From NCBI GenBank assembly GCA_035221665.1, contig CM069156.1, positions 29,388,001 through 29,452,000 of the forward strand: DNA of 64,000 nt, in the 5' to 3' direction. Origin of the DNA: Okamejei kenojei (lineage: Eukaryota). Position 1 is the first letter of the stretch. Each line of letters starts with the position of its first letter. The notes beneath the pieces were generated by a model that was not told where the DNA came from, did not search any database, and worked only from the letters and a program-made list of their open reading frames with translations. The position numbers and the translations under genes are program-made. Below are positions 15,910-57,211 of this stretch, piece by piece.

Positions 15910-16769
15910 ACTAGTTTTTCAGGCCATGGATTCTAGTAGTTTACAAGCTCAAGGTCACAATCACTAGCTGTACCCAATGTCCTGCAAAATCAGTGGACAG
16001 CAATGATAGAATGGGGACAGTGGAGCTTACTGTATGCATTTGAAGCTCATATACTTTGCAATTACTTTGCAACTGCACTGTCATTCTGCAGTATTTTAAT
16101 AAAACACTTGTCAATCTCATCGTAATTACTCTAAAGTGTTAGGAGATGAGTTTGCACTTTTCAGTCCCTCAAGCTTTGGGTTCCTGTTCTCTATTAGACA
16201 AACATTGCACTAAAAAAGGTTAACTTTTTAATAAATCAGAATGGAAGATCTTGCCAGATCGATCTCTCTACTTCAAATGCCAATTTTGCTGCATTTAGAA
16301 TCATGGAGTTAAAGAATCATACAGTACAGAAACAGGCCTTTAGGCCGACCAATTGTATGCCAACCATCAAATACCTAACTATATTAATCCCATTTGGTCC
16401 AATCTTGAAGATAGATCCCAACGTGAAACGTTGTCTGTCCGGTTCCCTCCAGATGTCGCCTGATTCCTGAGTTCATTCATCAGTTAGTTTTGTTGCTCAA
16501 GATTACAGATCTGCAGCGTCTTTTGTTTCCAGTAACCTATTACGCGTTAGCGATTCAAGATGCTAATCCAAATGCTTCTTAACTCGTAACCCTGTGAGAG
16601 TTTCTGCCTTCATCACCTTCTCAGGCAATGAGGTGAAATATTATTCTCCAGATTTCTTCTAAACTGCTCACAATTCTCTCTATCTTAGACATCTCTGCAA
16701 TGTGGAAATGGTTCTTACTATTACTCAAACTATGCCTATCATAATCTGGTATAACTCTCTCAGGTCCCC

Positions 16770-16906
16770 TTCTTCTTCTTCTTCTTGCGTGTGGCGTGCC
16801 CAGCCTAAAGACAACTTGTTCTGTTTGATCTTCTGATGGTGCACACCAGGTTGATTGCATTTGTCGACACAGGGTGGACCACGTGAAGGTTGCAATCTCC
16901 CACCCC
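16770..16906 (-). mobile_element. Short retroposon headed by an HDV-like ribozyme, (GAA)n tail, copy 1
   Basis: 14-bp TSD TCTCTCAGGTCCCC (16756-16769, 16909-16922); homologous to 57069-57211. Confidence 0.85.
16853..16906 (-). ncRNA. Predicted minimal HDV-like ribozyme
   Basis: GGGGTGG GA GATTGCA ACC TTCACGT GGT CCACCCT GT GTCG AC AAA TGCAATC gives P1, P2, P3, L3 and J4/2 in the HDV order. Confidence 0.78.
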
Positions 16907-19159
16907 AATCTCTCAGGTCCCCCATCAGCCTCCTCTCCTCCTCAGCTGATACCTCACAGTGACATAGAGACAGGTTCCATCCTGACAACATATGCTGTCT
17001 GTGCGGAGTTCGCAAGCTCTCCCTGTGTCTACGTGGATTTCCTCCAGGTGCTACCGTTTCATTCTGCATTCCAAAGACGTGTGGGTTTGTAGGTTAATTG
17101 GCCTCTGTGAATTGCCCAAGTTTATAGGGAGTTGATGTGAAAGTGGAATAACATAGATAATCGATATGGCCTAAGTGGGTTGAAACCACCTGATTCCTTG
17201 CTATATTTCAATCAATCAGAAAACAAATGAAACGTAATAGGTTGGAAAACACAAACTGCTGGAGGAACTCAGCGAGTCGAGCAGCGTTTGAGGAGGAAAA
17301 GGAATGGTAAATGCTTCAGGTAGAAGCCCTGCAACAGGACTGAGAACGAAGAGGAAAGATAGTCAGCATGAGACAGGGACCACTATATCCAAGACTTAAC
17401 CTTGGACCCACACCTAAAACTGTCTCTCTCACCTAATTAGAGTCAGAGTCATATAGTACAGCATGGGAAACAAGTCCCCAGGTCCAACTCGTCTTGCTTG
17501 CAATGAGGTTGCCTACCTGAGAAAGAACCATTTGCTTGCATTTGGCCCATATGCCTTTAAACCTAAGCATGTGCATCTGTCTAAATGCCTTTTATGCAAT
17601 TGTACCTGCCTCTACCACTTCCTCTGGCAGCTCATTCCATATACCCACCATCGTTTGTTTGAAAAAATGGCCTCTCAGATCCCCTTCAATTTTTTCTCTC
17701 TCCTCATCCGATTTTGGCTCCCCTACTCTGGGAAAAAGTCTGTGACCATTCACTTCATCAATGCCCTTCTAATGCTATAAGATAACCCCTCAGTCGCCTT
17801 TGCTCCAAGGAGAAAACCCCCAACTTATCCAGACTCTCTTAATAATTCAAGTCCTGACAGTCCCAGCAACAATTTTATGAATCTCTTTTCCACCCTTTCT
17901 AGTTTATTGTGTGACCTTGCTATGAGTCAATTGGGTTCCAGCTGCCTACATTATAATATTTAATGTATTTCAATATCACTTATTTTTTAGATGTTCTGAC
18001 GCAATAGGCACGACAGAAATATGAGGTGTGAAGTGATCTGAGTGGGAGCTACTTCTGTGTTACTGTACTTTGGCACGCTGACTTAATCAGCTCCCGGATT
18101 ACACCAACAAGTGGACCTGACTTGAGTTTTGCACTGACCAAATCAGACTTATCATGATTTTAAATTATCATGTGACTGTGAAGACATAATGAATTGGGGG
18201 AGGAAGGAAAGCACTCTCTTTATACTAAACCTTTATTACCATGACAACGGCAATGCTGCTAAGATACCAGTGCTGCTTTCTGAAACACTCAAGTGTTTAC
18301 ATTCAGGGCTGCAGGATTTTTCTCACTAGTGCTGCCTTTCCTATGGAGCAGTTGTCACACTCTCAGCACAGAAACAGGTCCTCCAGCGAATTTGTCCATG
18401 TCGACCAAGTTGGCCAACTGAGCTGGTCCCAATTGCTTACTCCTGCCTCATTTCCCTCTCATCCTTTCCTAATCATGTAGTTGTGCAAAGGTCTTTTAAA
18501 TGTCGGGATGTACCACTTTCTCTGGTAGCTCATTCCATATACCCGCCACCTTGACAAGGTTGCCCCTCAGGTCCCATTTAAATTTTTCCCCATTCACCCT
18601 CTACCTTCTAGTTTAGACTCTCCTAGCCTGGGGGAAAAGACCCTGGGTATTCGCCTTATCTAAGCTCCTCTTGATTTTATCAACCTCTATTAAGGTCACT
18701 TTTCAACCTGCTACATTCCAGAGTATAAAGACGCAGCCTATCCAATCTCTCCTTATAACACAAGCCCTCCAGACTTCAAATCATAAAACGCACCATAGAA
18801 ATATATATTTTTTTTACAAAAGGATGTCTGACGAAGGGTCTCAACCCGAAATGACACCCATTCCTTCTCTCCAAAGATGCTGCCTGTCCCGCTGATTTAC
18901 TCCGGCATTTTGTGTCTACCTTCAATTTGAAAGAGCATCTGCAGTTCTTTCCTACACAGGTTTTATCTAAAATCTGCTCACTTAAGAGCATATTGACCTG
19001 AAAAGTTAAGTTCCTCATAGATAATATTGAATATTTACATTTCACATTCTATTCACTCTATGTCTGAGAAAATATGGTAATTCCAGATTTGCATGGCTTT
19101 TGCTCCAGCTGTGGAGAACCTGGGGCTAATGCATGTTTGATACTTTCCCATGAACACTA

Positions 19160-28376: not shown

Positions 28377-28498
28377 TAATGCCCCCTTCTCATTGGCTGC
28401 AGCGTTGGCAAGGGCAACAACAAATGAAATCCTTCAGAGTGACCTTTCCCTTCTTCATTTTGTGCCGAAGCTCTTGGATGGCACCGATGGGATTACTC
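28377..28498 (+). CDS. PPM1E: Protein phosphatase 1E, coding exon 2 (not in the ORF track frame)
   Basis: Polypyrimidine-TTTCAG acceptor, GTAAGT donor; translates [40 protein letters not shown], resembling mammalian PPM1[20 protein letters not shown]; phase joins exon 3. Confidence 0.92.
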
Positions 28499-29937
28499 GT
28501 AAGTAGTATGAAAACCAGGAGAGGGAAGATTGAATCAATTCCTCCCTAAAGCTCCTATGGAGACACTTGGATTGTTTTACTCGATGAGACTATCATTTAT
28601 CTCTTAATTAGCATCAATAAAAATGAAGGCAGTCCAAAATACTGCAGATGCATCTGTAGCAAAATAGAAAACTGCTGGAGGAGCCCAGTGGGTCAGGCAG
28701 CATCTGTGGAAGAAATAGACAGACGGCGTTGAAGAGTCTATGTGAAGGGTCTCAGCCGAAAATGTTGACTGTCCATTTCCCTCCAGAGGTACTGCCTGAC
28801 TCACTGTGTTCCTCTAGCAGCTCTCCCTTTTTGCTCAGTAAAAATACATTTCACTTTGTTAATTGTGGAAGTTGCAACTTGCAGCAATGCTTCCTAAATT
28901 GTGATTGCACTTCAGAGATACTTGATTTGCTGTGGAATATTTTGAGATGTCTTGAAAATGCAAAACACTGTACAGAAATTCAGGCTTGTCTCCATTTAAG
29001 AATGTGTTGCTCCTGAACTAATGAGGGAGAGGAATCCAGGAAGAGGCATTTTATCTTGGGAGATAGCTACTGCACAGTGAGGTTAGTTATAGTCTATGTT
29101 TCTCTGTTGGGTCTTTTCTGAAACATTCCAACTGGTGCTCTTTAAGGAGAAAGAATGGGGGAGGGGGAAGAGATCTATTTGTAACCTACTAGTTATCACC
29201 CAAGTGACAATGAGTCTCATCGTATCTTTACTCAACACCCCACTCACACACAAAGCATTCAATCTCATACAGGTGCCTACACTTCCACCCCTCCCCTCAC
29301 TACAGATATACACTAAAGTTAGTGATGGAAACAGGACCTGGTTGATTACACTTCCCTGCACCATTAACCCAAGGTGTTGATGTCAAATGACTGACTCAAT
29401 ACACATATTAGAAATTCAGTTTGGGAATACCTTATTTTTTTAGTTTGACATTGTATCAGTTTGGTGCCACCTGTGAGTAAACTGTTGAAAATGGAAATCT
29501 GCCAAATGCACAACAGTACCTAGTTGAAGGACATGTAGGGGTGTGGATAAGTTTGATAGCAATGCAGATAACCAGGCAAGCAGTGTAGTAGAATGAGAAC
29601 AGAAAAATAGAGAATTTTATTTTATTGCTTTACAAGCACCCTTGATTACTCAAACACGCTCACTGCAGTAACTTGATTTTTAAAATGTAGTCCTCGCACA
29701 TCACACGTCAATGTGCTGTGGTCAAACACGGTAGCCTATTTGTGTACAATAAAGATTTCACAAATAACAGTGAGACAATCTATTTTGTTAACTTATTCAC
29801 TGTTAAGTCAACAGGAAAAGTACATAAAGTTGCATCAACCACTGCGCATGACCTATTTTGATCTCGGAAAGTCTTATGATGCTATCGATCAAGTGGGCCT
29901 ATGAAGAATCCTTCTTAGATGTCAGAAATTCATTTCT

Positions 29938-30638
29938 TTTTTTCCCTTTTTCTATTATTTATTTATTAGAAGCAAGTGTACAGAAATGTAACCAACGGCA
30001 TATGACATAATACAGTTATTGTACAGCTTCAATTTTGACTTTTAGCTACAGTTAAGAGAAAAGAAAGGAGAAAAATAGAAAGAAAGAGTGGGATGTGCAA
30101 GGATAGAACCCCTAGACTACCAAAATGGTGTAGCCAAAGAGTAAGTAAAATAAATAAGAAAGGAACAGAGAAATAAAAAGACAAAAAAAAGAAAGAAGTG
30201 ATGATATACCTGCCTCACATCCCTCCCCACCCATCACCCAACCCGTAATTAGATTTAACTCCAAAATTGTGTTGTACCATACTATCCTTGTAATAAATCA
30301 ATGAATGGTGTCCATGTCTTCGAAAAATGCTCTGGTTTTTCTGCTAAGACAAGTCTAATATTTTCAAGATGTTGTGTCTCAGACACGTTTGTAATCCACA
30401 TTTTAAGAGTAGGAACAGATGTATGTTTCCAGAATTTGAGTATTAGTTTTTTCACCATTATCAGGCCATAATTAATGAAATATTGATAGCTCCGAGCAGG
30501 CTTCTGACGTACCTAGAATAATCAATTCCGTGTCGGGGTCCAATTTTGTTTTTAGTGTTTTTGAGAAAATTTCAAAAATTCCTCTAGAAAAATTATGTAA
30601 CTTTATACAAGAGGCTAAAGGAATGTGTTATAGTTGCT
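29938..30638 (-). mobile_element. 5'-truncated L1 3' end inserted in an RTE-like RT remnant (~29790-30900, +)
   Basis: 14-bp TSD AGAAATTCATTTCT (29924-29937, 30639-30652); A-rich tail; host reads QQEKYIKLHQPLRMTYFDLGKSYDAID. Confidence 0.78.
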
Positions 30639-32216
30639 AGAAATTCATTTCTATTCTGTGTCTGTTACACAACAAAATTCAAATCTGTCTCTAGTGTACA
30701 ACATCATTGGTCCGACAATAACATCCACAATGAGACCCTGGAAAAAATAGATTATTTTCCAGATCTCAAGAGCTACTTCTTGGCAAAGGCTGACATTGGT
30801 GATGAAATTAACTACCACCATAGTCTTTGCTATCTGAAGAAGAGGCTTCAAAGATCAAAATATCAAGGGGCCAAAGTTCGTAATCTAACCCAGGCGGCAC
30901 AGATCCCCACTTTCCTGTTTGGTTCAGTCACTGCACACTAGAACTCCCTACTCAACAGCATAATAGGAGCATCTTCACCAGAACAGTAGCAGTTAAAGAA
31001 GGTGTCTCACCACCACCTTTACAACTGGATAGGCAATAAATGCTGGCCTTTGCAGAAGTACCTATATCCATTAAAAAATGTAAAATGAAAAAGCTGATAA
31101 TGGAGTCATACCACAAAATATCCCCAATCCACTGGCAGAATAAGTAAACCAACACCAGCTTCCATTACCAAATCAACAGCCCAACTTTAAGCCCCATATT
31201 ACATACAGCTAGATGCAAGGAGCAGATCACATCATGTGCATGCCCAACACCTAACTCCTGAAACGGGCAAAACACAAAATGCTGGGGGAATTCAAGTGGG
31301 TCAGGCAGCATCTGTGGAGGGAATGGACAGATGATATTTCGGTTTGGGATCCTTCTTGAGACCTAACCCGAAGCATCACCTGTCCATTCCCTCCACAGAA
31401 GCTACCTGACCCACTGAATTCCTCTAGCAGTTAGTGTTTTGCTCAAGATTCTAGCATCTGTAGTTTTTGGTGTCTCCTGAAATAGGCACTTTAGTTTTAG
31501 CTTTGTCATGGTAAGCAATTACCAGACAAACAGAGAAAATAACTAAACTTTGTTCTCAATGTCTCCGGAAGAAAATTTAATATTTTCCCCACTTTACAAA
31601 ATTCCGTTATGCATGACTGTTCAAAATTGAGAAATTCAGAATGACAGAGAACCATGGGTCCCTCTATCAGTATGAGGATTCCCAATGAGAATGGTGAAAG
31701 CAGCACACCTTTTTCCACCCTAACCCCTCAGCTGCCTCATCGAACACTGACTTTCCCCATTTGTCAGTCTTTGGAGCCCACAATGGCTTCATTGAACCAC
31801 CTCAGAACCCATGGATGGAAGCAAGTTATCAAACTGCAAGGAAATAAAAATATTTTGTTGGCTCTAGCTGATGGGTCGCCATGTTGGCTCCACCATGTCC
31901 ATTGTCCATTGGTGCTGTCTGATTCTTTACATTCACCTACAGCAGGAATTAGTGCATGTGTTTTTAATTTCAAAATATAAATATATATTTGCAAGTTTTA
32001 TGAACAGGCACCAAATATCAAATATCACCATTCTCAGTACACGCCATATCATTCCATTTACATTAACGCAGCAAGACAAGATGTGACACATGTGACATAC
32101 CTCTTGACACATGGTTCTGGACCGTGGTATGTGCCGATTTGGTTGTGGGCAATTTCTTGCAGCAGAAGACCTGCAGGTTTCAGACAAACTAGAGGGCACT
32201 AAGTTAATAATCATCA

Positions 32217-34670
32217 AACATAGAAATTAGGTGCAGGAGTAGGCCATTCGGCCCTTCAAGCCTGCACCGCCATTCAATATGATCATGGCTGATCATCCAA
32301 CTCAGTATCCCGTACCTGCCTTCTCTCCATACCCTCTGATCCCCTTAGCCACAAGGGCCACATCTAACTCCCTCTTAAATATAGCCAATGAACTGGCCTC
32401 AACTACCCTCTGTGGCAGAGAGTTCCAGAGACTCACCACTCTCTGTGTGAAAAAAGTATTTCTCATCTCGGTCTTAAAGGATTTCCCCCTTATCCTTAAG
32501 CTGTGACCCCTTGTCCTGGACTTCCCCAACATCAGGAACAATCTTCCTACATCTAGCCTGTCCAACCCCTTAAGAATTTTGTAAGTTTCTATAAGATCCC
32601 CTCTCAATCGCCTAAATTCTAGAGAGTATAAACCGAGTCTATCCAGTCTTTCTTCATAAGACAGTCCTGACATCCCAGGAATCAGTCTGGTGAACCTTCT
32701 CTGCACTCCCTCAATGGCAATAATGTCCTTCCTCAGATTTGGAGACCAAAACTGTACGCAATACTCCAGGTGTGGTCTCACCAAGACCCTGTACAACTTA
32801 AGTAGAACCTCCCTACTCCTATACTCAAATCCTTTTGCTATGAAAGCTAACATACCATTCGCTTTTTTCACTGTCTGCTGCACCGGCATGCCTACTTTCA
32901 ATGACTGGTGTACCATAACCTCACATTTATCCACATTATACTGCATCTGCCAAACATTTGCCCACTCACCCAGCCTATCCAAGTCACCTTGCACTCCTAG
33001 CATCCTCCTCACAGCTTAGTGTCATCCGCAAACTTGGAGATATTGCCTTCAATTCCCTCATCCAGATCATTAATATATATTATAAATAGCTGGGGTCCCA
33101 GCACTGAGCCCTGCGGTACCCCACTAGTCACTGCCTGCCATTGTGAAAAGGACCCGTTTACTCCTACTCTTTGCTTCCTGTTTGCCAGCCAGTTCTCTAT
33201 CCACATCAACACTGATCCCCTAATGCCGTATGCTTTAAGCTTGTATACTAATCTCTTATGTGGGACCTTGTCGAAAGCCTTCTGGAAGTCCAGATATACC
33301 ACATCCACTGGTTCTCCCTTTTCCACGCTACTAGTTACATTCTCGAAAAATTCCACCAGATTCGTCAGACATGATTTACCTTTCGTAAATCCATGCTGAC
33401 TTTGTCCAATGATTTCACCACTTTCCAAATGTGCTGCTATCCCATCTTTAATAACTGACTAGCAGTTTCCCCACTACCGATGTTCGACTAACTGGTCTGT
33501 AATTCCCCGTTTTCTCTCTCCCTCCCTTCTTAAAAAGAGGGGTTACGTTTGCTACTCGCCAATCCTCAGGAACTACTCCAGAATCTAAAGAGTTTTGAAA
33601 GATTATCACTAATGCATCCACTATTTCCTGAGCTACTTCCTTAAGTACTCTGGGATGCAGCCTATCTGGCCCTGGGGATTTATCGGCCTTTAATTTATTC
33701 AATTTACCCAACACCACTTCCCGACTAACCTGGATTTCACTCAATTCCTCCTTTGGCCCGCGGTCCCCTGCTATTTCCGGCAGATTATTTATGTCTTCCT
33801 TAGTGAAGACGGAATCAAAGTAGTTATTCAATTGGTCCGCCATATCCTTGTTCCCCATGATCAACTCAGCTGTTTCTGACTGCAAGGGACCTACATTTGT
33901 TTTAACTAATCTCTTTCTCTTCACATATCTATAACAACTTTTGCAGTCAGTTTTTATGTTCCCTGCCAGTTTTCTTTCATAATCTATTTTTCCTTTCCTA
34001 ATTAATCCCTTTGTCCTCCTCTGCTGGTCTCCGAATTTCTCCCAGTCCTCTGGTATGCTGCTTTTTCTGGCTACTTTATACGCATCATCCTTTGCTTTGA
34101 TACTATCCCTGATTTCCCTTGTTATCCACGGATGCACTACCTTCCCCGATTTATTCTTTTGCCAAACTGGGATGAACAATTTTTGTAGTTCATCCATGCA
34201 GTCTTTAAATGTCTTCCATTGTATATCCACCGTCAACCCTTTTAGAATTAATTGCCAGTCAATCTTGGCCAATTCATGTCTCATACCCTCAAAGTTACCT
34301 TTCTTTAAGTTCAGAACCAAGTTCAACACCCACCAGCGTTTTCTGCCCCTTAGTGTTTTGCAGCTCTACCCATACCGATTCCACATCCTCCAAGCTAATG
34401 TCCTTTCCATTGCGTTAATCTCCTCTCTAACCAGCAACGCTACCCCACCTCCTTTTCCTTTCTCTCTATCCCTCCTGATTATTGAATATCCCTGGATGTT
34501 CAGCTCCCAGCCTACGTCCCCTGAAGCCATGTCTCCGTGATCCCAACTATATCATAATCATTAATAGCTATCTGCACATTCAACTCGTCCACCTTATTAC
34601 GAATACTCCTTGCATTGAGACACAAAGCCTTCAGGCTTGTCTTTACAACGCTCTTACCCCTTATACAATT
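32217..34670 (-). mobile_element. CR1 (HER1-like) LINE ORF2 with deletions and frameshifts
   Basis: APE start LCLNARSIRNK...GITETWL; [56 protein letters not shown]; CR1 3' UTR. Confidence 0.95.
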
Positions 34671-35030
34671 ATGCTGAAAAGTAGCAGCTGTTTCAGTGTG
34701 CATACCTGGGAACAGCCCTCAGCCACTGAGTGCTGTGTAACACAGCTGTTGGGGATGGAACTCCACGGAGATCACTTCATCTCTTTCCAGACCTTCTTTG
34801 TAAATGTACATTCCAGAATTTGATGGATGACGGTCTCATCCCTAAACAACCGTCTTGAGGGCAGCCTGTGGGGAACTGATTCACCCTACCACTCAACCAT
34901 TGTTAGCAGCATAACCAAGTGTTCTGAGAGAGCTTTATCCTCTGTGATCAACTTAAGGTCCAGAAACCTTCACACATCGAGTAAATTGTTATTCTGCCTA
35001 ATCTCTCCCTCACTGGGTTAATTGAGCTGT
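34671..35030 (-). mobile_element. Decayed Tx1/L1-like LINE C-terminus, split by the CR1 (continues ~32090-32216)
   Basis: Frameshift-corrected CPQDGC..ETVIH.ILECTFTKKVWKEM...GLFPGMHTET zinc-knuckle region. Confidence 0.55.
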
Positions 35031-36639
35031 GATGTAGTGATTGAGTACTGTTGAATACATGCCAAGTACACAGCTGGGGTGGTTTCCAATTAATGTATTC
35101 ATAGTTTCTTTGAAGAGCTTTATTAAGCTACAGTTATGGATCCCGTGATGACTCCCAGTGAATCAGTTAAAAAGAAGAAATACATAAAGTTGGCTGGTTC
35201 CTTGAATAGCTCAGCATGGCCAGTGATTCAGACCAAAGGAAATATGGTACTGGTTCAAACCTTGGCAAAGGAAGACTTTCATTTGTAGTGTGTCATAGAA
35301 CAGGACAGCACAGGAACAAGACCTTCGGCCCACAATGTCTGTGCCAAACATGATGCCAAGTTAAACTAATCTCCTTGGTCATATCCATCCATTCCTTGCA
35401 TATTCATGTGCCTTTCTAAAAGCCTCTTAAGTGTCACTACCACTGCCACCTCTCCTGGCAGAGCTTTGCAGCCAACCACTACTCTTATGTAAAAAAAACT
35501 TGCCTTACTTATCCCCATACGTTGCCCCTCATCTTTAATCTATGCTCTCTAGTGCTTGATACTTCTACCGGGGGAAAAAAGAGTCCTGACTGTACCCCAT
35601 CTATGTTTCCCATAATTTCACACACTCTTATCAGGTCTTCCCTCATATTCCAAAAGCAATCTGCGGCCAATTAAGAACTTTTAAAGTGGTCATTGCAGAA
35701 AAGCGTAGGTAGTTGTGCCCAACAAGATCCCATGATATTTGATTTGATTGAGAGATCAAAATCAGTCAACTTGTTTGGAATTGTTTCAGGCTTTATTTCA
35801 CGCAGGGATTAGACAGGGTCTCAGTTTATCAACTTGTCAAAATGATGATGCCTCCTGACTGTGCAGCCCTCCATGAGTATGGCATTCTCAGTTCCACCCT
35901 GGGAGCGTCAGCCTGGATTATGTTGTGACTTGAATTCACAACCACAGATTAAGACCACTATGCAAAGTCATAACAGATGGGCAATGTTCACAGGCACAGT
36001 TCATTGACAGTGGAGGCCTCTGATCTACTGTAATACACTTTTCACAAATGCTTCCCCCCCCCCCCACCACCCCCCTTTAAAAATGGAAGCCTTGGACAAA
36101 TCAAACTTATGGTTTCAAACCCATGCCATGGCACTAAATAATACCATGGCAATGCATAAAATACAGCCACTATAAGGCATCAAAGTTTTGGGGTTGATGT
36201 GCTTAGCAATTGTAACCCTTTCCCGAGACTCACCAACACCTGCACTCCTCCCTCTGCTACTTGAGATTCTCCCCAAGCTAAATGATAGCAAAGCTGACAA
36301 TTCATCTTAGAACATAGAACAGCACAGCACAGGTACGGGCTCTATGGCCCACAATGTTTGTCCCGAACATGATGCCGGTAAACTGATCTGCCTGTACATG
36401 ACCCAAATCCTTCTATTCCCTGCACTTCCATGTGCCTATATAAAAGCCTCTTAAATGCCACAATCATATCTGCCCATAAACCACCTCTGGCAACCCATAC
36501 CAGGCCCCCACTACTCTGTAAAAAACTTGCCCCACACATTTCCATCAAACATCCCCCTCTCACCTTGTAGCTATGCCCTCTAGTGTTGGAAATTTCCACC
36601 TTGGGGAAAAAAGATTCTGACTGTACAGATAGGTTATGA

Positions 36640-37950
36640 TGTGTAGGAAAGAACTGCAGATGCTGGTTTAAATCAAAGGTAGATCACAAAATGCTTGAGT
36701 AACTCAGCGGGACAGGCAGCATCTCTGGAGAGAAGGAATGGATTACTTTTCGGGTCGAGACCCTTTTTCACAAGGTTATGACCTTCGATTGACATGCCCC
36801 TGCTTCTTTTTTCCATTCAAGTTAGGCACCCAATTATCTTGGACATATAGTTTATTTCGTCCTCACCTTCCATCCAACCAGCCTTTGCATCCAGCACATC
36901 ATTATTCGACATTTTCACAAGCTGCAACGTGATCCTATTTTCTGCCCTATCTTCCCCTCCCACTCCTTTCTGCTTCGCGCAAGGACAGCTCTCATCTTGA
37001 CTCGTCTCTAACCTTTGCAAAGGGTGGTTTGGTCATCTATCCCCACCCTTCGCTCTCCCTTTCCTTTTGCTCTGGCACTTCCCCCTGCAAGGCTAGGAGA
37101 AGCAACACCTGTCCCTATATCTCCACTCTCACTAACATCTAGGGACCCAAATAGCCTTTCCAGGTGAAGCAGAGGCACCTTGTCTAGTCTACTGCATAGG
37201 ATATTCTTGATGTGGCCTCCTGCACATCGGTGAGATCAGGTACAGATTAGGCAATCGCTTTGCGGAGCACCTTGCTCTATCTGCAATGCAACTGGAGCTC
37301 ACAATTACTAGCCATTGCAATTACCCTCCCATCCCCACACTGACCTGTCTGGCCTTAGCCCCCTCTACAGCCAGGACAAGGCTAAACGCAAACTAGAAAA
37401 ACAGCATATCATATTCTATCCTGGTAGTCTAGATCCCAATGGCATGAACATTGAATTCTCTAATTTCAAGTAACCTGCTCTCATTCGGTCAATCTAGCCA
37501 TTGCGATCCTCCCACTCACATTGTTCGTTCCTATGCTTCCCCGCCCATCACCTAATCATTCCTCTCATCAGTTCTCTTACCTCTGCCATGCTTCCATTTG
37601 CTCACCTTACCTCCTCAGTTAATCCAATGCTCAACTTTCCTGTCCCATCAGATTCCATTAACTGTAGCTCCTGGCTACCTCCACCTGTCCTGTGCCAATT
37701 TGGTTGTTATCTCCACCCCTCTCTCTCCCACCTGATTCCCATCCACCAATCCACCCCTCCTCACCATGAGTGTACAGGTCCTTGGCCCACCCCCTCACCT
37801 CTTTATACCAGCTACCTCCATGATATTATTTCAGTACAGAGGAAGGGTCTCAAAATGGCAATTTACCATTTAGCTCTGTTGATGCCGCCTGACCTGCTGT
37901 TCCTCCAGCAGTTTGTTTTTCCTTCCAGACCAGCATCTGTGGGTTTTTGT
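36640..37950 (+). mobile_element. Decayed PLE 3' part with pseudo-LTR remnants
   Basis: HIGEIRYRLGNRFAEHL remnant at ~37225; ATGAACATTGAATTCTCTAATTTC; inverted pseudo-LTR at 36640-36770. Confidence 0.7.
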
Positions 37951-38999
37951 GTACACAAATATTTTATCATAATTTATAGTATCTCAGTAGTCAGTTGCAG
38001 AATCCATTTATTTGACTGATGCTGGGGATTTATTCCTATCTTGGTCTATGTTTTGTGGTCTTGTTTTGTTCTATGTTATGGGCTTTGAATGGTTAGTCAA
38101 GTGAAAGTAAGTCATGTCCTGCGCAATTCTGCCTATTTCATCATTGCTGGCATCAGGTGTTTGATTCAGGTGAGAATACACATTCTTTCCAGTTAGGAGC
38201 CCAAGCACTGGAGGAAAAAATTCCATTGCCAATTGTAAAAATCAATCTTCACCTGGGTTTCCACGATGGAGATTAGGAAGATTGGCATCAAAGCGACCGT
38301 GCAAATTTCACTTATCAGATTACGATGAAAACAGCTTGCTCCCACAAGAAATCTAGAGATATGAAAGCAAATTGGGGAGAGGCAGGTCCAAAATGATTTC
38401 AAGAAATGCAAGACAGTCCCAGGGAATTCAAGAGAATAACAGAGAGATATTTTAAGGTGGATTATCCCTAGGGAGAATTGAAAGTAACAAAATAATAGTC
38501 AGTGGGCAGTGACAGAAGATCGAGGAGGACGATTATGCACGTCATGAACACCTGCAAAGACCAGTTGGTTTAAATGTCCTGATTCTGTACAATACTGAAT
38601 AATAAACACCATGCTAAATAAAAATCTGAAGAAAATGTTCCATATAAAAATGGATTATCCATTTGGAGGTCATTTTATTGACAGTGACGACGAGACCGTG
38701 TCCTAATTACGGCAGAGAAAATTGACTGGCTAGTTAGTTAGCACGTGTTACTTAAAAGTGATGGTCGAGTGCTTGTTGCATCTTGTGCTTTTTCACCCAG
38801 ACCTGTAAATCCATTTAGTTTCTGGAGACATTGCTATTAATGTACTTTAAAAAAAGTTGCATCTGACCAACAAAAACATAGGCTCAGGTGGGAAGGGGAT
38901 CGAAGCAGGTCAGAGAGCTGAGAACAGTCTCAAGGGTGAATTTACTGGTCAGGCACCTCCTTGCATTGTTGGAGTAACTGTTGGAGCTTTACCCTTCTA

Positions 39000-40020
39000 T
39001 ACCTTCGGATGACGAAATAAAAACAAAGACTCCACACGGTTGTCAGGCCGAGTATACATACACTATTTCCACGGCCAAAGATGTGCGTTAAAAACCTAAC
39101 GCTTCCCCACTCTCCCGACGTCATTGAAATGGACAAGTTTGGGATGGGAGGCCTAGTGGGGGTGACAGCCTCGGAAAGAGACAACGACACGTGCTGTGTT
39201 CCCGTTGTCGCCACTAGTTATGACTTCATCCAACGAGCAGTCCGAGTCCCCGGCTTCAGCACCTCAGGCCCTCCCCATTAACCAGTTCCACTTACCGTCC
39301 AGAGCGACTTCTCCCCCATCGACTGTGTGAGGAGAGGGGGGGGGGGGGGCGAGCACGGAGCGCGGGCACACTCCGTGATGACAACCAGGTGATGGTGCAC
39401 GCGGGTCCTCGGGTCCCCCACGTGACCCCACACACCCCTCGCGCTCGAGGCCGCCGACGCCCCCACGTGACCAACAGTCGAGGGGCCAGACTACGGATTA
39501 TAGAGCAGCGCCCCACGTGATCGCCGCCCCGGCAATATCTCACGTCTCCAGCTCCCCCCGTGACAGCCGGCACATCACACGTGACTGGATAGGTCGCCGC
39601 GCAGCTGACCCTTATTTCTGAATGAATGGGAATTGACCAATTTTTGTTTCTAATTTAATTAATTGAAATATATATATATTAATTAGTACAGGTGGGGAGA
39701 AGGCAGGAGAATGGGGTTAGGAGGGAGAGATGGATCAGGCATGATTGAATAGCGGAGTAGATTTGATGGGCCGAATGGCCTAGTTCTACTACAACATCTT
39801 ATGACTGTCCCGGGGGGGGGCACGGAGGGTAACGCGCTCCCCCACCCATGCGCTGCTGGCTGACGAGCCCGACGCCGGTGGGGGTGGGGGAGGCGCGGAA
39901 TCCTCCCTTCACGAATGTTCGGCCTCGCCCGCCAGTCCATTGGGGTGGGAGAGTCTGGGCGGCCTTACTCCCCGTTACCGTTTTAAGGCGATGGCGGGAT
40001 GCCCATCACATAGTTCGGGC
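39000..40020. promoter_or_regulatory. Intronic CpG island with an E-box cluster; candidate antisense promoter
   Basis: High CpG density in a CpG-poor window; CACGTGA at 39419, 39464, 39514 and 39578; CACGTG at 39188 and 38742; minus-strand donor ACG|GTAAGT at ~39295. Confidence 0.65.
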
Positions 40021-40021
40021 T

Positions 40022-40336
40022 TCACAGCGGCGCAGTTGGCAGAGTTGCTGCCTTACAGCGCCAGAGACCCGGGTTCGATCCTAACCTCGGGTGCTGTGCG
40101 TGTAGAGTTTGCACATTCTCCCTGTGACGACGTTGGTTTTCTCAGGGTGCTCCTGTTTCCTCCCACGTCCCAGAGATGTGCTGATTGTAGGTTAATTGGC
40201 GTCTGTAAATTGCCCCGAGTGTATGGGGAATGGATGAGAAAGTGGAATAATGTCGAACTGAGAACGGGTGATCGATGGTCGGCACGGACTCGGTGGGCCG
40301 AATGGGTTGTTTCCAGGCTGTGTATTTCAATCAAAT
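40022..40336 (+). mobile_element. HE1-type V-SINE, near full length
   Basis: GGCGCAGTTGGCAGAG...GGGTTCGATCC head, V-domain, tail GGGCCGAATGGGTTGTTTCC. Confidence 0.85.
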
Positions 40337-42222
40337 AAAAAAAAAACATTTTCATAGTTGCCCAACAGTGAGGAATATTGCACACCTCGAGGAAGTTCAT
40401 GTTATCATCCAGATGCATAGGATTTCCTTTCAGGCAGACAGCCAGGTGAAAATATTTGTTTTAATGCAGTTGCTAGAAATCTACAGTAGATACTGGAAAT
40501 ACCCAGCAGGTCAGGCTGCCGCTGTGGGAAGAGAAACTTCTATTAAACTTTCAGGTCCAAGGTCTTTGGTCAGTGAGAACTCAAGGAGGAGCTGTCCATT
40601 CAGCACCATGACCGTATGAAAGCAAACCTGAGCGATAGTTTGCAGCCAGATTGGGCTCCAGTTCCCCAATCAGGCTTCAGTAGTGGCTGGGTCAATGGAC
40701 CAACAATCCAGAGACATGGACCAATGCTATTTTGGACACAAAGGATTTGAATACCACAGAACCTGGTCCATATATAAGGCTTCTGGATAGGCACATGGAT
40801 ATGTGGGGAATGGAGGAATATGGATCATGTGTAGGCAGAGGAGATTAGTTTAACTTGGTATTATGTTTGGCCCAGACATTGTGGTCTGAAGAGTATATAT
40901 ATATATATATATATATTTCAGCTATTTATTCTGGATTATAAAACAATGGTATATATTAATACATCATTGTAAAAATATTAACAATTTTCGTGAAGGGCCC
41001 AGAGGTTAACCAAAAGATTTAATCCACAATTTCCACATACATTAGCTGGACCAGAATTTGGACACAAAATCCTCTACAAACATTGACCTGTTCTCATAGG
41101 TCTGATGTGGAGATGCGAGGGACAGTGTCCATGTGTGGAAGTGATGGGTTGAGTCCAGAGGAGAGTTGGAGATTTAGGTGCTCTAACGCACTAAAATGTT
41201 GGACTTGAATAAAAGCAATTGGGACTTTGAGTAACTTTGCTATCAGAGAAAGATGATATCTTCATGCACAGTCACTGATACAACTCAACCTGCTGACAAG
41301 GGTGAAGAGATAAGGTTCTGCACAATCGCTGTGTGCTGTAGGCTGACTCAGCGGCCTGTTGTCAGGTCCCTCTGTGAATGATTGATGAATAATACTCTGC
41401 ACTGCAGGCCGGGTTAGACCAAGAGATCTGTTCCATCTGTTCCCCATGGCCTGTCAGTAATTATTAATGTGGTGTGGAAATATTGTATGCCTGGTGGGGG
41501 AGGGTGGCAAATACACTCGACTTGCATTTCATGACCTCAGGATGCCCCAGTGTGTTGAAGTGTTTATTTGAAATGTAGTCAATATTACAATGGATGGAAT
41601 GTAGAAGTCAGTTTACACAACATAAACAGCCACAAGGAACAATATGATATAAGCCAGGCAATCAGTTTCTGTCACGTTGATTGAGGGATAACGACTTGAT
41701 GTGACAAAAGGATAACCCCTATTCTTCAGGGTATTTTGCCAAACCAATATCCTGTGATGTTTGACAGGTCTCAGTTTAAAGCCTCACATGTGAGGCAGCA
41801 CCTATGTCGAAACAGCACGGCCCTGCACTACTTTTTTTGTGCGTAAGTCCCTTGAGTGGGTTAGAATCCAAAATGACTTGGAGGCAAGTGTTCTGCCCAC
41901 TTAACTACTGCAGGTCAGGTTACTTCCCTGTTTTTTATTTGCAGAACCATCATTGTTTTATGCTCCATTTTTCTGCCCTTGAAAACCTTTTGTGTGAAGA
42001 AGTGTGTCATCCGGCCAGTGAAGTCAGGCTGTAACATTCACCTCTTGATAGCTATAGTGTAACCGCAGCTGGCTGGCATCGCAATTGTCTGGCACTGATT
42101 TTCCGTTAAATCTTCCACAATTTTAAATATATATTTATTTGCTCGTGGGTTGTGCACATTGCTGACTTGACCTGTCTTTGTGCAACAGAGAGTTGAATGG
42201 TTTAACCCTTATGCTTTTCCAG

Positions 42223-42422
42223 AGTTTGACTCAACGAAGCTAGCCCGAATGGTGTTCACCACGCTCCACGTGGTCTGCTGCAGCTGGGTGAAGGACCTGC
42301 CTTTAACAAGAAGATCACATCCCTATTTCGAAACATCAATTCATGCCATCAAAAACATGCGCAGGAAAATGGAGGATAAACATGTTTGCCTGCCTGATTT
42401 CAATAGTCTCTTTAATCTAGAG
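42223..42422 (+). CDS. PPM1E: PPM1E coding exon 3
   Basis: TTCCAG/GTAGGT sites; [11 protein letters not shown]...[30 protein letters not shown] (PP2C RxxMED motif). Confidence 0.96.
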
Positions 42423-44539
42423 GTAGGTAGATATAGGCTGACATAACATGATATGAACTTTTCTTAGCCTATCCCTACATTGCTGGCCTTTTAAGCTTCA
42501 ATTGACTCCTCCGGGCTCCTTAAAAACTACAAACATCGACCATCAATTTTATAAGTTGCTTGAAATTTCTTAAATTCCCATTCATCTATTCTTTAAAAGA
42601 TAGTTTATTTCTATCTGATGGGTTTATGAGGAGATCTCTTGGTATCTCTTTCTCGCCTTAAGATTTGTTGAACACATTTCAATGTATTTTATTCTCTTAC
42701 TCTAACTGCCTCTCCCTCAGTCCTCTGTCGAAGCCAAGGTGATACTCTGGGTTCTTGCACCAAGGCCACCAGTACCCATGGATCTGTCTCCCATTCATCC
42801 TATGCTAGGCCGAGCAGTGAGAAATCTGATTGCAGAGTGCATCAGGTTTAAGTCCCATCCAACAGCTGGAAATGAAAACATTGTCTATCAGGCCTAGGAT
42901 TGAAATGGGACTTTCTTATGCATGTGGCTTGGTCGGGCTTTACCTGATGCATACTTTCACCACCTGCACTTGTTTTCTTGGTTCAATTTTAAATACATTT
43001 GTTAAAAACCTTTCCCTGACAGACTACTTGAAACCCAGAGAGAGAGAATCTCTCTTTACCCACGAGCAGAGTCGACAAGGCACAATCTCAGAAAAAGTGA
43101 ATTAATGCAGCAGTGATTTAAAGACATTTGCATTTCAGCAGTGTTTCACCAACTCAAGAAGTCCCAATGCATTATACAGCAGCTGAGTAGTCATTGCAAT
43201 AATGTAGGTAATGCAGCAGCCATTTGTACACAGGAAGCTCCCAATAAGTGAAATGATAACCATATTATCCGGTTTTAACTTTTGAAAAAATAGTGTTGGC
43301 CAGGACACAAGAGAACACTCCCTTGAATTATTTCAAAAGCTTCATTAAATCACTTCTACCCATCAAGTTCGACAAACAGGACCTTGTTTAGCATTTCATT
43401 GAAAAGGTGGCATCTCCGCGAATGTTGCACTCCCTCAATCTGCTACTGGGAGGTTAACTTAGGATTTGAGGCTGAAGGCCACAACTGATCCTCAATTGAC
43501 ACATCCTTCATCAAGATGAGCTGCCATTTGAGTCTAGGCAACACTTCAAATCAGAGTGTGTCCTGAGAAGAGGCAATGAATCTGGTGATGCTTAGAAAGA
43601 TGCGGCAGTAATAGCTGTCATAGAAAATTATTTCATTAAACAGCGGCCTTGTCTGTCTGTATCTGAATAGTTAGCGTTTGTTGAGGGTGGATAAGGCAAA
43701 AATGAAAGTAAATGAGATGGATGAAGGCAAGGTTGGGACTGGAAAGATGGTGGGAAACAAAATGACAAAAGCTAAGAAGAAAGGGTGGAAGAAAATTAGG
43801 CATGGAAGTTGGTGGGGGAGGCTTAAGTATAAGTGAGTGGAAGTGAGGCAGCAAGTCAGTGAGAGGACAAGAAAGGGGGAAATAAGAAAATTAATGCTGA
43901 GTGGAAAGGGTGGGGGGTGGGAGAAAAGACGAGGCAGATGATCAATAAATGGCAAATTAAAAGAAGGTATAAGTGGTGAGGGGATGAGGAAGAGAAAATA
44001 GTGATTATTGGAAGCAGGAATTCAAATGAGTCTGCTTTTGGAGAGGAAATTTATGTAGGAAAATTGTATGTATGTAATGTACCCCGGATGCCCATTATTC
44101 TTTTGTTGTTTGTGGATTGCACGCGATCCAAAGTGTTCCCCATTTACAAAGCAGGCTACTCCTCAGGAATTCTTAGCCACAAATTACTTTAGTAATGCAG
44201 TGAGATGTTGCACTTTGGGAGGCTGTATGTAAGGGGAAAGTAAAAGTATAGATCCTTAACAACATTGATGTATAGAGGGATCTTGAGGTCCAAGTCCATA
44301 GCTCCCTGAAAGTGGTAACACAAGTAGATAGAGTGGTGTTTTGGAGGCATTTAGTTAGGCAGATGGATATGCAATGAATGGAGGGATATGAATCACAAGC
44401 AGGCAAAGGACATTAGTTTAACTAGGCATCATTGATGACACAGACACTGTGGGTCAAAGGGCCAGTTCCTGTGCTGTATTGTTCAATGTCAACATCATCT
44501 TTGTTTCTCTGCCTATCTGTAATGTTTTCCACCCAACAG

Positions 44540-44728
44540 GACCAGGAAGAACAATCATTTTTTGCTGTGTTTGATGGACATGGAGGGGTGGACGCTGCAA
44601 TTTATGCCTCCATCCACCTTCATGTGAACCTGGCCCGTCAGGAAATCTTCCAGCATGACCCTGCTGAGGCCTTGTGTCGTGCCTTTCGTCTCACGGACGA
44701 ACGATTTGTCCAGAAGGCTGCCAGAGAG
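44540..44728 (+). CDS. PPM1E: PPM1E coding exon 4
   Basis: [28 protein letters not shown]...FVQKAARE; 189 nt; DGHGG motif. Confidence 0.97.
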
Positions 44729-45716
44729 GTTTGTGATCAAGATCTGAAGAAACCTCGCACTGAATGTGTCCAACAGGGCTGTCTCTCACTTGTATACGAT
44801 TTCGGTCCCATATGGAAGGCCATTTGTTGCCTGAATCAACATCTCACTGAGTGAGGTGGTAACTAGAAGCTGTTGCCATGCATGTGATGGATTGGTGCAA
44901 TGAGACAATGAAATGGGCTGCCAATGTAATCTGAGTACAGTGTTCACCACCAAGTGATTGTGAGCAACTCTGCTGGGTCAAATTAGTTATTTGGCCTTTA
45001 CTATCTCTTTGGGAAGGCGATCCAATCTCCCACTCTCCTGTTTTTAACCTATTCAAGTTAAATGTCCAAAATACACTTAAAAGATGGAACCAATGGAGTC
45101 AGATTTTGGTTACCTATTTGGGCACCTTGCATACCTTGCCACCCCTCTTTGCTAAGAAATGCGCCCTCATCTTTTCTGACTCTTGTGCCAGTTATTACCT
45201 ATTGACCACTCTTGATTTAATCCTGCACAGACTAATGCCAACCTCTGCTCTCCCCAGAGTTCCCGATGATACCTTCAGCCACTCACTCACCAGCGCATAA
45301 GCAGCTGCAAGCAGAAAGTGAGAAATGTTTATAATTGTGAGTGGCAAGTAAGGGGGTCAAAAATGCATCCCCAGTGTCTCTAATTCTTCCAGCTACCTCT
45401 ACGATACCACCAAAAATGGGGAAGAGATTTCAGGAAACTTCCACCAAAGAACCATCACAGTAATCACCACTTGTGCTATGCAGCATCACACTCCATGCAG
45501 CACAACAGGATATTTTAGTATGATGTGAAGGGGTGAAAGGCAGACAGCCTAAATTGTAAAGTGATCCTCCTCCATCTGATGAATCAGGCTAGGATAAATT
45601 TGGGGAGAATCTCACATGTCCTGGTCAGGAAGTTCTGAGCAGGGAGGGGTCAGGCGGGTGTATGGAAATGCTGATAACTTTGATGATAACCTACAGTTTC
45701 ATTCGGATTCCCTCAG

Positions 45717-45860
45717 AACCTGCGATGTGGCTCAACTGGAGTGGTGACCTTTTTGCGGGGCAACATGCTGCACATAGCCTGGCTTGGGGACTCCCAGGTA
45801 ATGCTGGTCCGAAGAGGCCAGGTCGTGGAACTGATGAAACCACACAAACCTGATCGAGAG
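45717..45860 (+). CDS. PPM1E: PPM1E coding exon 5
   Basis: [48 protein letters not shown]; CCTCAG/GTAATT sites. Confidence 0.97.
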
Positions 45861-46958
45861 GTAATTGAGGCACAGTGACAGCATGTTGAATTTTCTTGAC
45901 ACAAATGTGCACTTATGATGATGGGGATTGTACATGGCTTTATGGACTGGAAATTGCCTCAGTCTCTCCCTCACAACTCCTCTGCTAAGGGAAATATATC
46001 GTGCCTTCCCTTAGGTCAATCATAATTTTATACACTTAAGTCAATGTCCCTCAATCTTTTCTGTCTTAAAAAAAACAGACTTAACCTATGATGTCTGATC
46101 TGATTGTAAGCTCAACATTTCCATGTTACCGTTTTATCTGCTGCTTTTCAAGAATCTTAAGTTTGCCTTAAAGAAATCAAATACTCAACTTCCACTGCCT
46201 TTTAAGGAAGAGTTCCAATGGATTGCGATCCTCTTGAGAGAAAAACAATTCACCCCAACTCTGTCATAAATGGACAACGCTTGTTTTTAAATAGTAGCCT
46301 TTTGTTCTAGATTTTTCCTGTAAAAGAGATTATTATCTATGTATTCACCCTGTCAAGAGAATCTTCAGTGATACTGCAGATACTGGTATATTGAGCAGAA
46401 AAAAAAAATTGCTGCAGGAACTGAGTAGGCCAGGCAGCGTCTGTGGAGGGAGATGAATAGATTGTGTTTCGGGTCAGGACCCTTCTTCAATCTGAGGAAG
46501 AGTACTGACCTGAAATATTGTCTCTCCATTTCCCTCCATGGATGATGCCAGGCTTGTTAAGAAATTAAGGTCTTATTTGTCTTAATCATGTGACTTCCCA
46601 CGCTGCTAAAATCCATGCAGCTACAAAAGGTTCACACAAAGGGTGGTGGGTGTGTGGAACAAGCTGCCAGAGGAGCGGCTGGTACTATCCCAATGTTTAA
46701 GAACAGTTAGACAGGTACATGGATAGGACAGATTTGGAGGGATATGGACCAAATGAGGGCAGGTGGGACTAGTGTAGCTGGGACATGCTGGTTGGTCTGG
46801 ACAAGTTGGGCTGAAAGGCCTGTTTCCATGCTGTATCACTCCATGACTCTATGACAAGCCTAGCATACCCATCCTTTCTCTATAAGATACTCCATCCATC
46901 CCTGTTATTGGTCTAGTGAGCCTTCTCTGAGTTTTGAACACATAAACATTAAGAATGA

Positions 46959-47632
46959 AGGTAGACAAAAGTGCTGGAGAAACTCAGCGGGTGAGGCAGC
47001 ATCTATGGAGCGAAGGAAATAGACAACATTTCAGGCCGAGACCTTTCTTCAGACTGAAGTAGGGTGGGGGGGGGGGAGACGGGGGGCAGGAAGAAGAAAG
47101 GCAGAGGAGTAGCCAGAGGGCTGAGGGAGAGCTGAGAAGGGGAGGAGACTGCAAGGACTACCGGAAAATGGAGAAGTCAATGTTCAAGCCGCTGGGGTGC
47201 AGACTGCTCCTCCAATTTCCGGTGGTGCTCACTCTGGCCATGGAGGAGGGAAAGTTGAAGTGCTGAGCCACAGGGGATCAGGTTGGTTAATGCGGACCGA
47301 GCGGAGGTGTTCGGCGAAACGATCGCCAAGCCTATGCTTGGTCTCACCAATGTAGATCAGCTGACATCTAAAGCAGCGGATGCAATAGATGAGGTTGGAG
47401 GAGGTGCAGGTGAACCTCTGTCGCACCTGGAACGACTGCTTGGGTCCTTGAATTGTGTCGAGGGGGGAGGTAAAGCGACAAGTGTAGCATCTCCTGCAGT
47501 TGCAAGGGAAAGTACCCGTGGAGGGGGTGGTGCAGGTGGGAAAGGAAGAATTGGCCAGGGAGTTATGGAGGGAGCGGTCTTTGCAGAAAGCAGACAGGCG
47601 GGGAGATGGGAAGATGTGGCGAGTGGTGGGGT
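46959..47632 (-). mobile_element. PLE 3' fragment (Cys-rich linker, GIY-YIG, pseudo-LTR)
   Basis: ORF 47229-47663 with NLIYCIRC..CQLIYIGET; 12-bp TSD CATTAAGAATGA (46947-46958, 47633-47644). Confidence 0.9.
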
Positions 47633-49494: not shown

Positions 49495-49588
49495 GATGAA
49501 AAGCAGAGGATCGAGGCACTCGGAGGTTGCGTGGTCTGGTTCGGGGCCTGGAGAGTTAATGGAAGCCTTTCTGTCTCCAGAGCGATCG
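49495..49588 (+). CDS. PPM1E: PPM1E coding exon 6
   Basis: [31 protein letters not shown]; CTTCAG/GTAAGG sites. Confidence 0.97.
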
Positions 49589-54443: not shown

Positions 54444-54449
54444 ATTAAA
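54444..54449 (+). terminator. Candidate PPM1E polyadenylation signal (ATTAAA)
   Basis: Lies at the end of an AT/TGTA-rich, repeat-poor stretch that looks like 3' UTR; transposon density resumes at ~54680. Confidence 0.35.
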
Positions 54450-57068: not shown

Positions 57069-57122
57069 GGGGTGGGAGATTGCAACCTTCACGTGGTCCG
57101 CCCTGTTTCGACGAATGCAATC
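57069..57122 (+). ncRNA. Predicted minimal HDV-like ribozyme (54 nt)
   Basis: P1 57069-75/57098-104 with G1.U wobble; P2 57078-84/57116-22; P3 ACC/GGT; L3 TTCACGT; P4 reduced to GT-TTCG-A; J4/2 CGAA. Confidence 0.85.
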
Positions 57123-57211
57123 AACCTGGCATGCACAATCAAATAAGTTCAAATAGAACAAGTTGTCCTACAACTTTAGGCTGTGCACGTCATACGCAAG
57201 AAGAAGAAGAA
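57069..57211 (+). mobile_element. Short retroposon headed by an HDV-like ribozyme, (GAA)n tail, copy 2
   Basis: TSD GCCAAG (57062-57067, 57212-57217) inside a CR1-tail fragment; one extra C at the 5' junction. Confidence 0.85.

Follow-up and report, generated by a model that had tools for sequence, protein, structure and literature searches.

A 137-bp retroposon in an intron of the skate Okamejei kenojei belongs to a non-autonomous family that very probably arose by internal deletion from a 3.04-kb Vingi-type LINE and is released from its transcripts by a ribozyme, mobilised in trans, and subject after insertion to mostly neutral decay. By this model, a source copy would be transcribed by read-through within a host transcript; the predicted ribozyme would cut just before the first nucleotide (G1), using C44; the LINE protein would bind the freed RNA in trans via its 3′ end and a 5′-3′ stem; and insertion would occur by target-primed reverse transcription with priming on the (AAG)n tail, after which most copies would decay neutrally. 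The same model is shown for R2 SIDEs in the available part of PMC3414825. The element described here (copy 1) lies with a second copy (copy 2) in a 64,000-bp stretch of DNA, the window, which corresponds to C26:29388001-29452000 of the 2.76-Gb genome. The features of the two copies are as follows.

16770..16906, minus strand: non-autonomous bipartite retroposon, copy 1, 137 bp
16909..16922, minus strand: upstream target-site duplication (TSD) of copy 1, 14 bp; 16907-16908 are two untemplated T
16756..16769, minus strand: downstream TSD of copy 1
16839..16852, minus strand: rest of the LINE 5′-UTR part of copy 1, with the 5′ arm of the 5′-3′ stem
16811..16838, minus strand: junction region of copy 1; by eye, in the family, short pieces appear to resemble the reverse complement of the LINE 3′ end
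16777..16810, minus strand: LINE 3′-end part of copy 1 (last codons, stop, 3′ UTR, stem 3′ arm at ~16792-16802, tail start)
16770..16786, minus strand: (AAG)n tail of copy 1
57069..57212, plus strand: copy 2, same family, G32 subfamily; ribozyme 57069-57122, short TSD 57062-57067/57212-57217

Read on the minus strand (16906-16770), copy 1 starts with GGGGTGG, ends with (AAG)n, and sits between exact 14-bp repeats, with the two extra T's separating the duplication from G1. Copy 2 is 85% identical to copy 1 and starts at the identical G, and its duplication is a different one (6 bp exact, or 9 bp with one mismatch). The preliminary description had taken copy 1 to be an independent second insertion with the same start, which its own 14-bp TSD, opposite strand, and common G1 confirm, and had listed three ribozyme differences from copy 2 (U-A/U.G in P1, GTCG/TTCG, and CAAA/CGAA), which are indeed the sole ones in nt 1-54. 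Copy 1 is one ordinary copy of an abundant family.

Nucleotides 1-54 are predicted to form a self-cleaving, HDV-like ribozyme that lacks P4, with the following parts.

16853..16906, minus strand: predicted P4-less HDV-like ribozyme, 54 nt; predicted cleavage 5′ of 16906
16900-16906/16871-16877, minus strand: P1, 7 bp, with G1.U36 at the cleavage site
16891-16897/16853-16859, minus strand: P2, 7 bp
16888-16890/16878-16880, minus strand: P3, 3 bp
16881-16887, minus strand: L3, 7 nt, with U20 and G25
16885/16870, minus strand: P1.1, C22-G37
16863, minus strand: C44, predicted catalytic cytosine (J4/2 CAAA); its position matches J4/2 of Rfam HDV-type models

The predicted fold has the 7-bp P1 with G1.U, the nested double pseudoknot of P2, P3, and L3, one P1.1 C-G pair, and the J4/2 cytosine of HDV-like ribozymes, together with a 2-nt J1/2 and 5-6 nt before C44, then two A's. 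A strict HDV descriptor matched only copies 1 and 2 on both strands of the 64 kb and none of 160 shuffles of other 441-481-nt loci, bearing out, as a prediction, the HDV-like fold that had been proposed from inspection. The P4 loop placed in that fold did not survive: the canonical P4 helix is absent, leaving just a 5-6-nt loop, because its pairs would use G37, which is needed for P1.1, and C44, the predicted catalytic base. The C22-G37 pair is present in both window copies and in 25/26 copies of a sister family described below, and the catalytic position is C in 25/27 LINE copies, with an equivalent C in 25/26 sister-family copies. An Rfam scan of the window gave no ribozyme at gathering level, and none for copy 1 itself; for another family copy (L004), the best match was the HDV model RF02682, which covered nt 1-54 exactly and scored 15.9 bits (cut-off 44; E 0.45). 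By nested folding, the ribozyme is not unusually stable (z 0.49).

The preliminary account of the retroposon did not name its parent, a LINE with the same ribozyme. At the 3′ end, the last 36-41 nt of the element are common to 30/30 LINE loci; within them lie the last codons and the stop codon of an RT ORF that ends in a cysteine knuckle. At the 5′ end, LINE copies open with the same ribozyme; an ATG lies at ~nt 106, and an APE domain comes after it. Copy 1 is identical to LINE copy L257 at 52/54 and 63/70 nt, and LINE copy L282 carries both ends on one 3,043-bp element with a TSD. Of the LINE 5′ UTR, the short element retains ~70-77 nt, and a short rearranged stretch links these to the final 36 nt of the LINE; the element thus shares both its 5′ and 3′ ends with one autonomous LINE, as bipartite non-autonomous LINEs do. 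Stops or frameshifts interrupt every LINE copy seen. Four other loci (L122, L140, L157, and L164) derive from this LINE by separate internal deletions, each with a different junction.

In Pfam searches, three pieces of the LINE ORF matched RT, a weak APE, and a weak zinc-knuckle; no RNase H was found in these pieces or in the homologue P0241, and the RNase H family PF00075 was absent among the 120 homologues listed. The LINE also carries terminal motifs that we take to fit the Vingi clade. The parent is probably Vingi-type, a label drawn from its architecture and these presumed motifs rather than from a tree with reference elements. A compact single ORF with APE and RT and without RNase H agrees with the definition of Vingi as a compact single-ORF APE element lacking RNase H (PMC13708176, available part). 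P0241 (1,019 aa, from an ENA assembly) has 75% identity with the skate LINE, and the matches after it are at 40-56% among those listed, the named ones being mostly from arthropods; this likeness possibly reflects horizontal transfer.

The genome also contains a 3.3-kb RTE LINE family (L081, L090, L100, L191-L220), found through DUF6451, many copies of which start at the same place, without a G at position 1. That the element is instead a parasite moved by this RTE might be argued from the RTE's (AAG)n tail, the same tail unit, and from its 5′ end, which resembles a long-P4 HDV fold. We rejected the RTE as parent: it has no 3′ sequence in common with the element beyond the tail and just a 19-nt core match at the 5′ end, whereas both ends of the element are almost identical to those of the Vingi-type LINE, so that the RTE reading is largely refuted and its probability is practically negligible. 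When we looked for a LINE that combines this ribozyme with a longer P4, 51 matches came up; every one of the 30 inspected was a decayed or interrupted short copy.

HDV-like folds recur in other Vingi-type families. Two have complete, P4-bearing HDV folds at the 5′ end by descriptor (L345:144-208 and L347:163 onward, both on the plus strand) and a third has a weak Rfam HDV match (L344:212-282, plus strand); of the eight 5′ regions scanned, five had no descriptor or Rfam match. Together with L346, L348, and L349, these loci represent at least three Vingi-type families, besides the parent, that begin with HDV-like folds keeping P4. A young Vingi-type family (L340 at C9:12614567-12616900, L350-L352, L354, and L355) has a 778-codon stop-free frame and near-identical 3′ ends in six loci, and was possibly active recently.

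We estimated the size of the short family from a 29-mer pattern at its 3′ end, which had 2,298 exact genome matches (the reversed control had 0), ~2% of them LINE ends. This 29-mer was found in 3/30 copies picked by their 5′ end and in 12/29 best BLAST matches, and three family copies were met by chance in 446 kb of flanks not chosen for them; together, these recovery rates and the flank density imply roughly 6,000-23,000 copies, on the order of 10^4. From the first 91 listed places on contig 1, 90 were analysed (the duplicate L030 was skipped), and removal of two LINE ends (L161 and L166, in which the 3′ pattern follows coding sequence) left 88 copies picked by their 3′ end. The 5′ end of these copies lay at G1 in 63/88, within 6 nt of it in 79/88, and further in for 9. 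TSDs of at least 8 bp (median 12) flanked 49/61 near-full-length copies compared to 2/175 swapped-flank controls. In a DNA run from a related species, 320 contigs have loose ends exactly before 57069, indicating that the same element boundary holds there. Thus, the family has TSDs, a simple-repeat tail, and no ORF, and has multiplied as a unit, as SIDE-type elements do. The base before G1 is T in 39/61 family copies and 20/26 sister copies, which may reflect target preference or untemplated addition. One locus (L148) holds a head-to-tail dimer within one TSD, a ~93-nt partial unit and then a full copy, such as a template jump would produce.

Heterogeneous 5′ ends, which the preliminary description had named as a result that would count against it, are not what the family shows. 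Short templates are often copied in full whatever makes their 5′ end. The further claim, that identical 5′ ends imply self-cleavage, stands only in part: the fixed G1 holds family-wide, but two ends of a 140-nt element cannot separate cleavage from an internal promoter. A better comparison is offered by the sister family (loci L301-L314, L321-L339, and L360-L399), which was found with a pattern forcing a different P1. Its members are ~165 nt long with TSDs and an (AAG)n tail, a 27-mer from their 3′ end has 1,159 exact matches, and they have a 52-nt P4-less fold with the same L3, C22-G pair, J4/2 layout, and catalytic C. Among 26 unselected copies with an ungapped 52-nt core, both partners are changed relative to family 1 in 5/7 P2 pairs, 2/3 P3 pairs, and the two inner P1 pairs; only two lineages are compared, so these changes represent at most ~9 events. 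A higher count, in which 10/18 pairs were changed on both sides, was dropped, as the sister copies used for it had been selected by pattern for a 7-nt P1 strand; in an unselected sample the P1 strand is 6 nt in 26/28 parsed copies. The sister P1 has 6 bp, and the first base of 30/38 aligned copies is the G whose partner is the final U. With a 7-bp P1 starting at one G and a 6-bp P1 starting one G later, the 5′ end follows P1 geometry. No parent LINE of the sister family was found among 33 ribozyme-picked loci, 40 3′-end-picked loci, or 20 stretches of other Vingi-type matches; from its architecture we infer a Vingi origin. A third recurring string proved to belong to another repeat and has no P1.

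These observations bear on the possibility that an internal RNA polymerase II promoter in the LINE 5′ UTR sets the start at or near G1, with a ribozyme that is weak or merely trims read-through transcripts. Such a promoter would meet the LINE's need for a translatable RNA, Kojima 2018 expects bipartite LINEs to be Pol II transcripts, and Pr77 of trypanosome L1Tc is both promoter and ribozyme (PMC4035085, available part). Against this, the 5′ end tracks the geometry of P1 across the 7-bp and 6-bp forms, one G apart, and the stems have been exchanged wholesale with pairing kept, which a DNA promoter does not require. We consider the promoter unlikely as the main determinant of the 5′ end and favour release by the ribozyme.

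Sequence variation within family 1 mostly reflects decay of inserted copies. Rare non-CpG substitutions occur at 87/2268 in P1-P3, 20/725 in linkers, and 10/394 in L3. The outcome that had been named beforehand as refuting, stems broken as often as loops, is literally what these counts show (87/2268 vs 20/725), yet the pattern is what neutral decay predicts. The pairing retained in copy 1, which had been emphasised, is present but says little in a single genomic copy; both window copies keep all pairs, and all 18 pairs and the core bases are intact in 16/88 copies. Inserted copies, copy 1 included, decay mostly neutrally, with the fold unselected after insertion. Copy 1 has a private change, U39G, found in 0/81 other copies. 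Selection acts on source copies, so shared variants rather than private ones test the fold.

Among shared variants, positions 8, 32, 42, and 45 vary beyond the CpG baseline, and all are unpaired or compatible with pairing (U-A or U.G). The LINE has A32, C44, and T45, and the U-A/U.G and J4/2 differences between the window copies are family-wide variants; we rejected CpG decay as the source of the A32/G32 split because the LINE has A32, making G32 derived. C44T (11/82) is at the level of other CpG cytosines (9-14 of ~80). Genome-wide matches numbered 567 for C44T and 1,311 for G45A, a comparison that is not a clean CpG test because the LINE has T45. Two variants run the other way: G6T (5/74) disrupts P1 and could represent a small lineage, and C44A was seen in 2/82 short copies and 2/27 LINE copies. 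No compensatory change was found within family 1. Overall, respect for the fold is confined to variants that have spread.

Both families and the LINE retain the catalytic C and U20/G25, and the base after the catalytic C varies freely (T, G, A, C) across all three. This contrast weighs against the idea that the pseudoknot was kept from the LINE as a cap that binds protein or blocks exonucleases, or else as a translation element, and no longer cleaves because P4 is gone. R2 HDV folds do also protect RNA and aid translation (available parts of PMC13708176 and PMC6765202), and the lack of P4, the single P1.1 pair, and the 6-bp sister P1 all suit a structural role; P4-less HDV ribozymes nevertheless cleave in vitro (PMC10879173, available part), and we regard a fold without cleavage as quite improbable.

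Besides the ribozyme, both families carry a stem that would join the RNA ends. In family 1, the 10-11 nt that follow the ribozyme complement the 3′ terminus; the 3′ half of both window copies folds at z ~ −2.3; and A61G and C59T, which are common in short copies compared to the LINE, each add a stem pair. The sister family has an equivalent 5′-3′ stem of unrelated sequence. Among loci with the LINE 5′ UTR, 13/30 are inverted, head to head with a LINE 3′ piece and with the ~2.5-kb middle absent (L251, L255, L259, L263, L266, L268, L269, L271, L273, L274, L276, L278, and L279). Two unrelated stems and these inversions suggest that the two ends of Vingi RNA may be kept in contact while it integrates, and this would account for the origin of such short derivatives.

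Bipartite non-autonomous LINEs are an established class that includes R2 SIDEs, NARTc/RIME/SIDER, RTE-N, and deletion derivatives of Vingi-1_EE (PMC3414825, PMC4035085, and PMC5786205), and Kojima 2018 names Vingi among four derivative-making clades. SIDE-type elements and the skate element alike consist of LINE 5′ and 3′ ends only, have no ORF, and are, or in the skate element would be, mobilised in trans, and SIDEs and NARTc also start with an HDV-like ribozyme. Unlike the SIDE types, the skate element is a vertebrate one, dispersed, present in ~10^4 copies, and 135-145 nt long including the 54 nt of a P4-less ribozyme; R2Dwi_SIDE, by comparison, is 529 bp long and confined to rDNA. The tRNA- and 5S-headed elements SINE2-1_ACar and SINE2-1_AMi are also short and have Vingi-derived segments. 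In contrast to these, the skate element has no small-RNA head and carries instead the LINE's own 5′ end: its head is the LINE 5′ UTR, not a tRNA-, 5S-, or 7SL-derived sequence of the kind found in Pol III SINEs. In structure, the ribozyme resembles drz-Mtgn and theta ribozymes, which also have P1, P2, P3, L3, P1.1, and the J4/2 cytosine and no P4. Theta ribozymes sit behind phage tRNAs, whereas the skate ribozyme heads an animal retrotransposon, and no tRNA was found within 16500-17200.

The kind of element is thus already known; the family appears to be a new form of it, a SIDE-type Vingi derivative with a predicted P4-less HDV head. Literature searches yielded no description of this retroposon family, whose novelty is provisional, as other sources, Repbase and Dfam among them, could already hold Vingi ribozymes or this family. 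According to the available part of Kienbeck 2024 (PMC10879173), minimal HDV ribozymes are defined by loss of P4, nearly 99% are in phages, and the eukaryote set comprises human, mouse, and protists. If a vertebrate LINE and its 140-nt parasite do begin with a P4-less HDV ribozyme, minimal HDV ribozymes would gain a role in eukaryotes. The skate element would also represent a natural minimal template at a time when Vingi proteins are being engineered as gene-insertion tools (PMC13708176, available part), and thousands of sense-strand copies could cut host introns.

The sister family bears a likeness to the mammalian CPEB3 ribozyme, giving a testable origin for a conserved mammalian ribozyme. 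Four sister copies that had been selected by pattern for a 7-nt P1 strand scored 31.5-36.4 bits on the CPEB3 model RF00622 (cut-off 35), and in L301, 23 consecutive bases match the CPEB3 consensus; six typical sister copies, with one C fewer in P1, scored 23-28 bits. Neither family falls within the CPEB3 family: family 1 had no RF00622 match, and 1/10 scanned sister copies exceeded 35 bits. The sister family matches the Rfam CPEB3 consensus through P3, L3, and most of P1, and family 1 shares with CPEB3 the G1.U36 and U20/G25 pairs, C22-G37 with a U.U neighbour, and the same 7-nt L3; the available part of PMC4836649 reports the corresponding CPEB3 features (G1.U36, G25.U20, and a P1.1 with one G-C plus U-U). 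The CPEB3 ribozyme has P4 and is single-copy, whereas the skate families are P4-less and abundant. Convergence seems the likelier reading, given the functional constraint on L3 and the commonness of G-rich P1 stems. Descent is less likely but conceivable, since a Vingi fossil from the human genome is listed in Repbase (PMC5753468, available part). No transposon origin for CPEB3 was proposed in the CPEB3 literature searched, including the available part of PMC10919898, and PMC8233481, on CPEB3, contains no occurrence of ‘origin’ or ‘retrotranspos’. A more sweeping scheme, in which Vingi elements are an animal source of P4-less and CPEB3-type HDV ribozymes, both skate families are active RNA parasites made of a 52-54-nt ribozyme and a 5′-3′ closing stem, and mammalian CPEB3 is a domesticated 5′ end of this kind, is doubtful.

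The host gene of copy 1 is PPM1E, for which the window contains the following features.

28378..52202, plus strand: PPM1E coding exons 2-7; exon 1 is at C26:29339494, upstream of the window
54444..54449, plus strand: ATTAAA, probable PPM1E poly(A) signal, from contig ends

PPM1E exon 1 lies ~48 kb before the window and exon 2 at 28378-28500 on the plus strand, placing copy 1 antisense in intron 1, as had been described, so that copy 1 cannot cut PPM1E pre-mRNA. The last PPM1E exon is 93% identical to that of Amblyraja radiata and 90% identical to that of Rhinoraja longicauda, which marks the animal as a skate. The candidate poly(A) site proposed earlier at ~2.6 kb before copy 2 gains a weak hint from contigs of three runs of uncertain type, probably RNA, which begin at the last exon (51198) and end at 54437-54464, close to ATTAAA, whereas a contig of a DNA run goes on to 54712. 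A cluster of ATTAAA/AATAAA motifs at 56849-56882 (plus strand), ~190 nt before copy 2, is a possible distal poly(A) site; contig ends gave no support for it. The suggestion that cleavage by copy 2 might affect PPM1E termination finds no support in these data.

Could copies 1 and 2 nevertheless have been kept to regulate PPM1E, copy 2 through termination and copy 1 through antisense RNA? Both keep all pairs, as 16/88 copies do, and a DNA contig of a relative extends 22 nt into copy 2, a weak hint that this insertion is common to that relative. But copy 1 is antisense with a private U39G, copy 2 lies 2.6 kb beyond the probable poly(A) site, and at ~10^4 copies intact ones near genes are expected. 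We consider a regulatory role very improbable; no effect of copy 1 on PPM1E or other host role is indicated, and neutral decay after insertion remains our reading of copy 1, as of most copies. All three copies or fragments in PPM1E intron 1 are antisense, a number too small to establish a bias. The upstream flank of copy 1 can pair with the ribozyme at −21 kcal/mol compared to −12 for copy 2, values obtained without a control.

Further copies or fragments near PPM1E lie at L286:2898-3006 (minus strand), L289:9036-9060 (minus strand), and L294:7043-7099 (plus strand), the last of them 3.4 kb before a Walker A exon on the plus strand that we take, by synteny, to belong to RAD51C. Other broken retroelements in the window are presumably, from their translations, an RT fragment with an upstream ORF (120-1800, minus strand), a CR1-like RT remnant (32302-34365, minus strand), and two Penelope-like endonuclease ends (47229-47672 and 58436-58987, plus strand).
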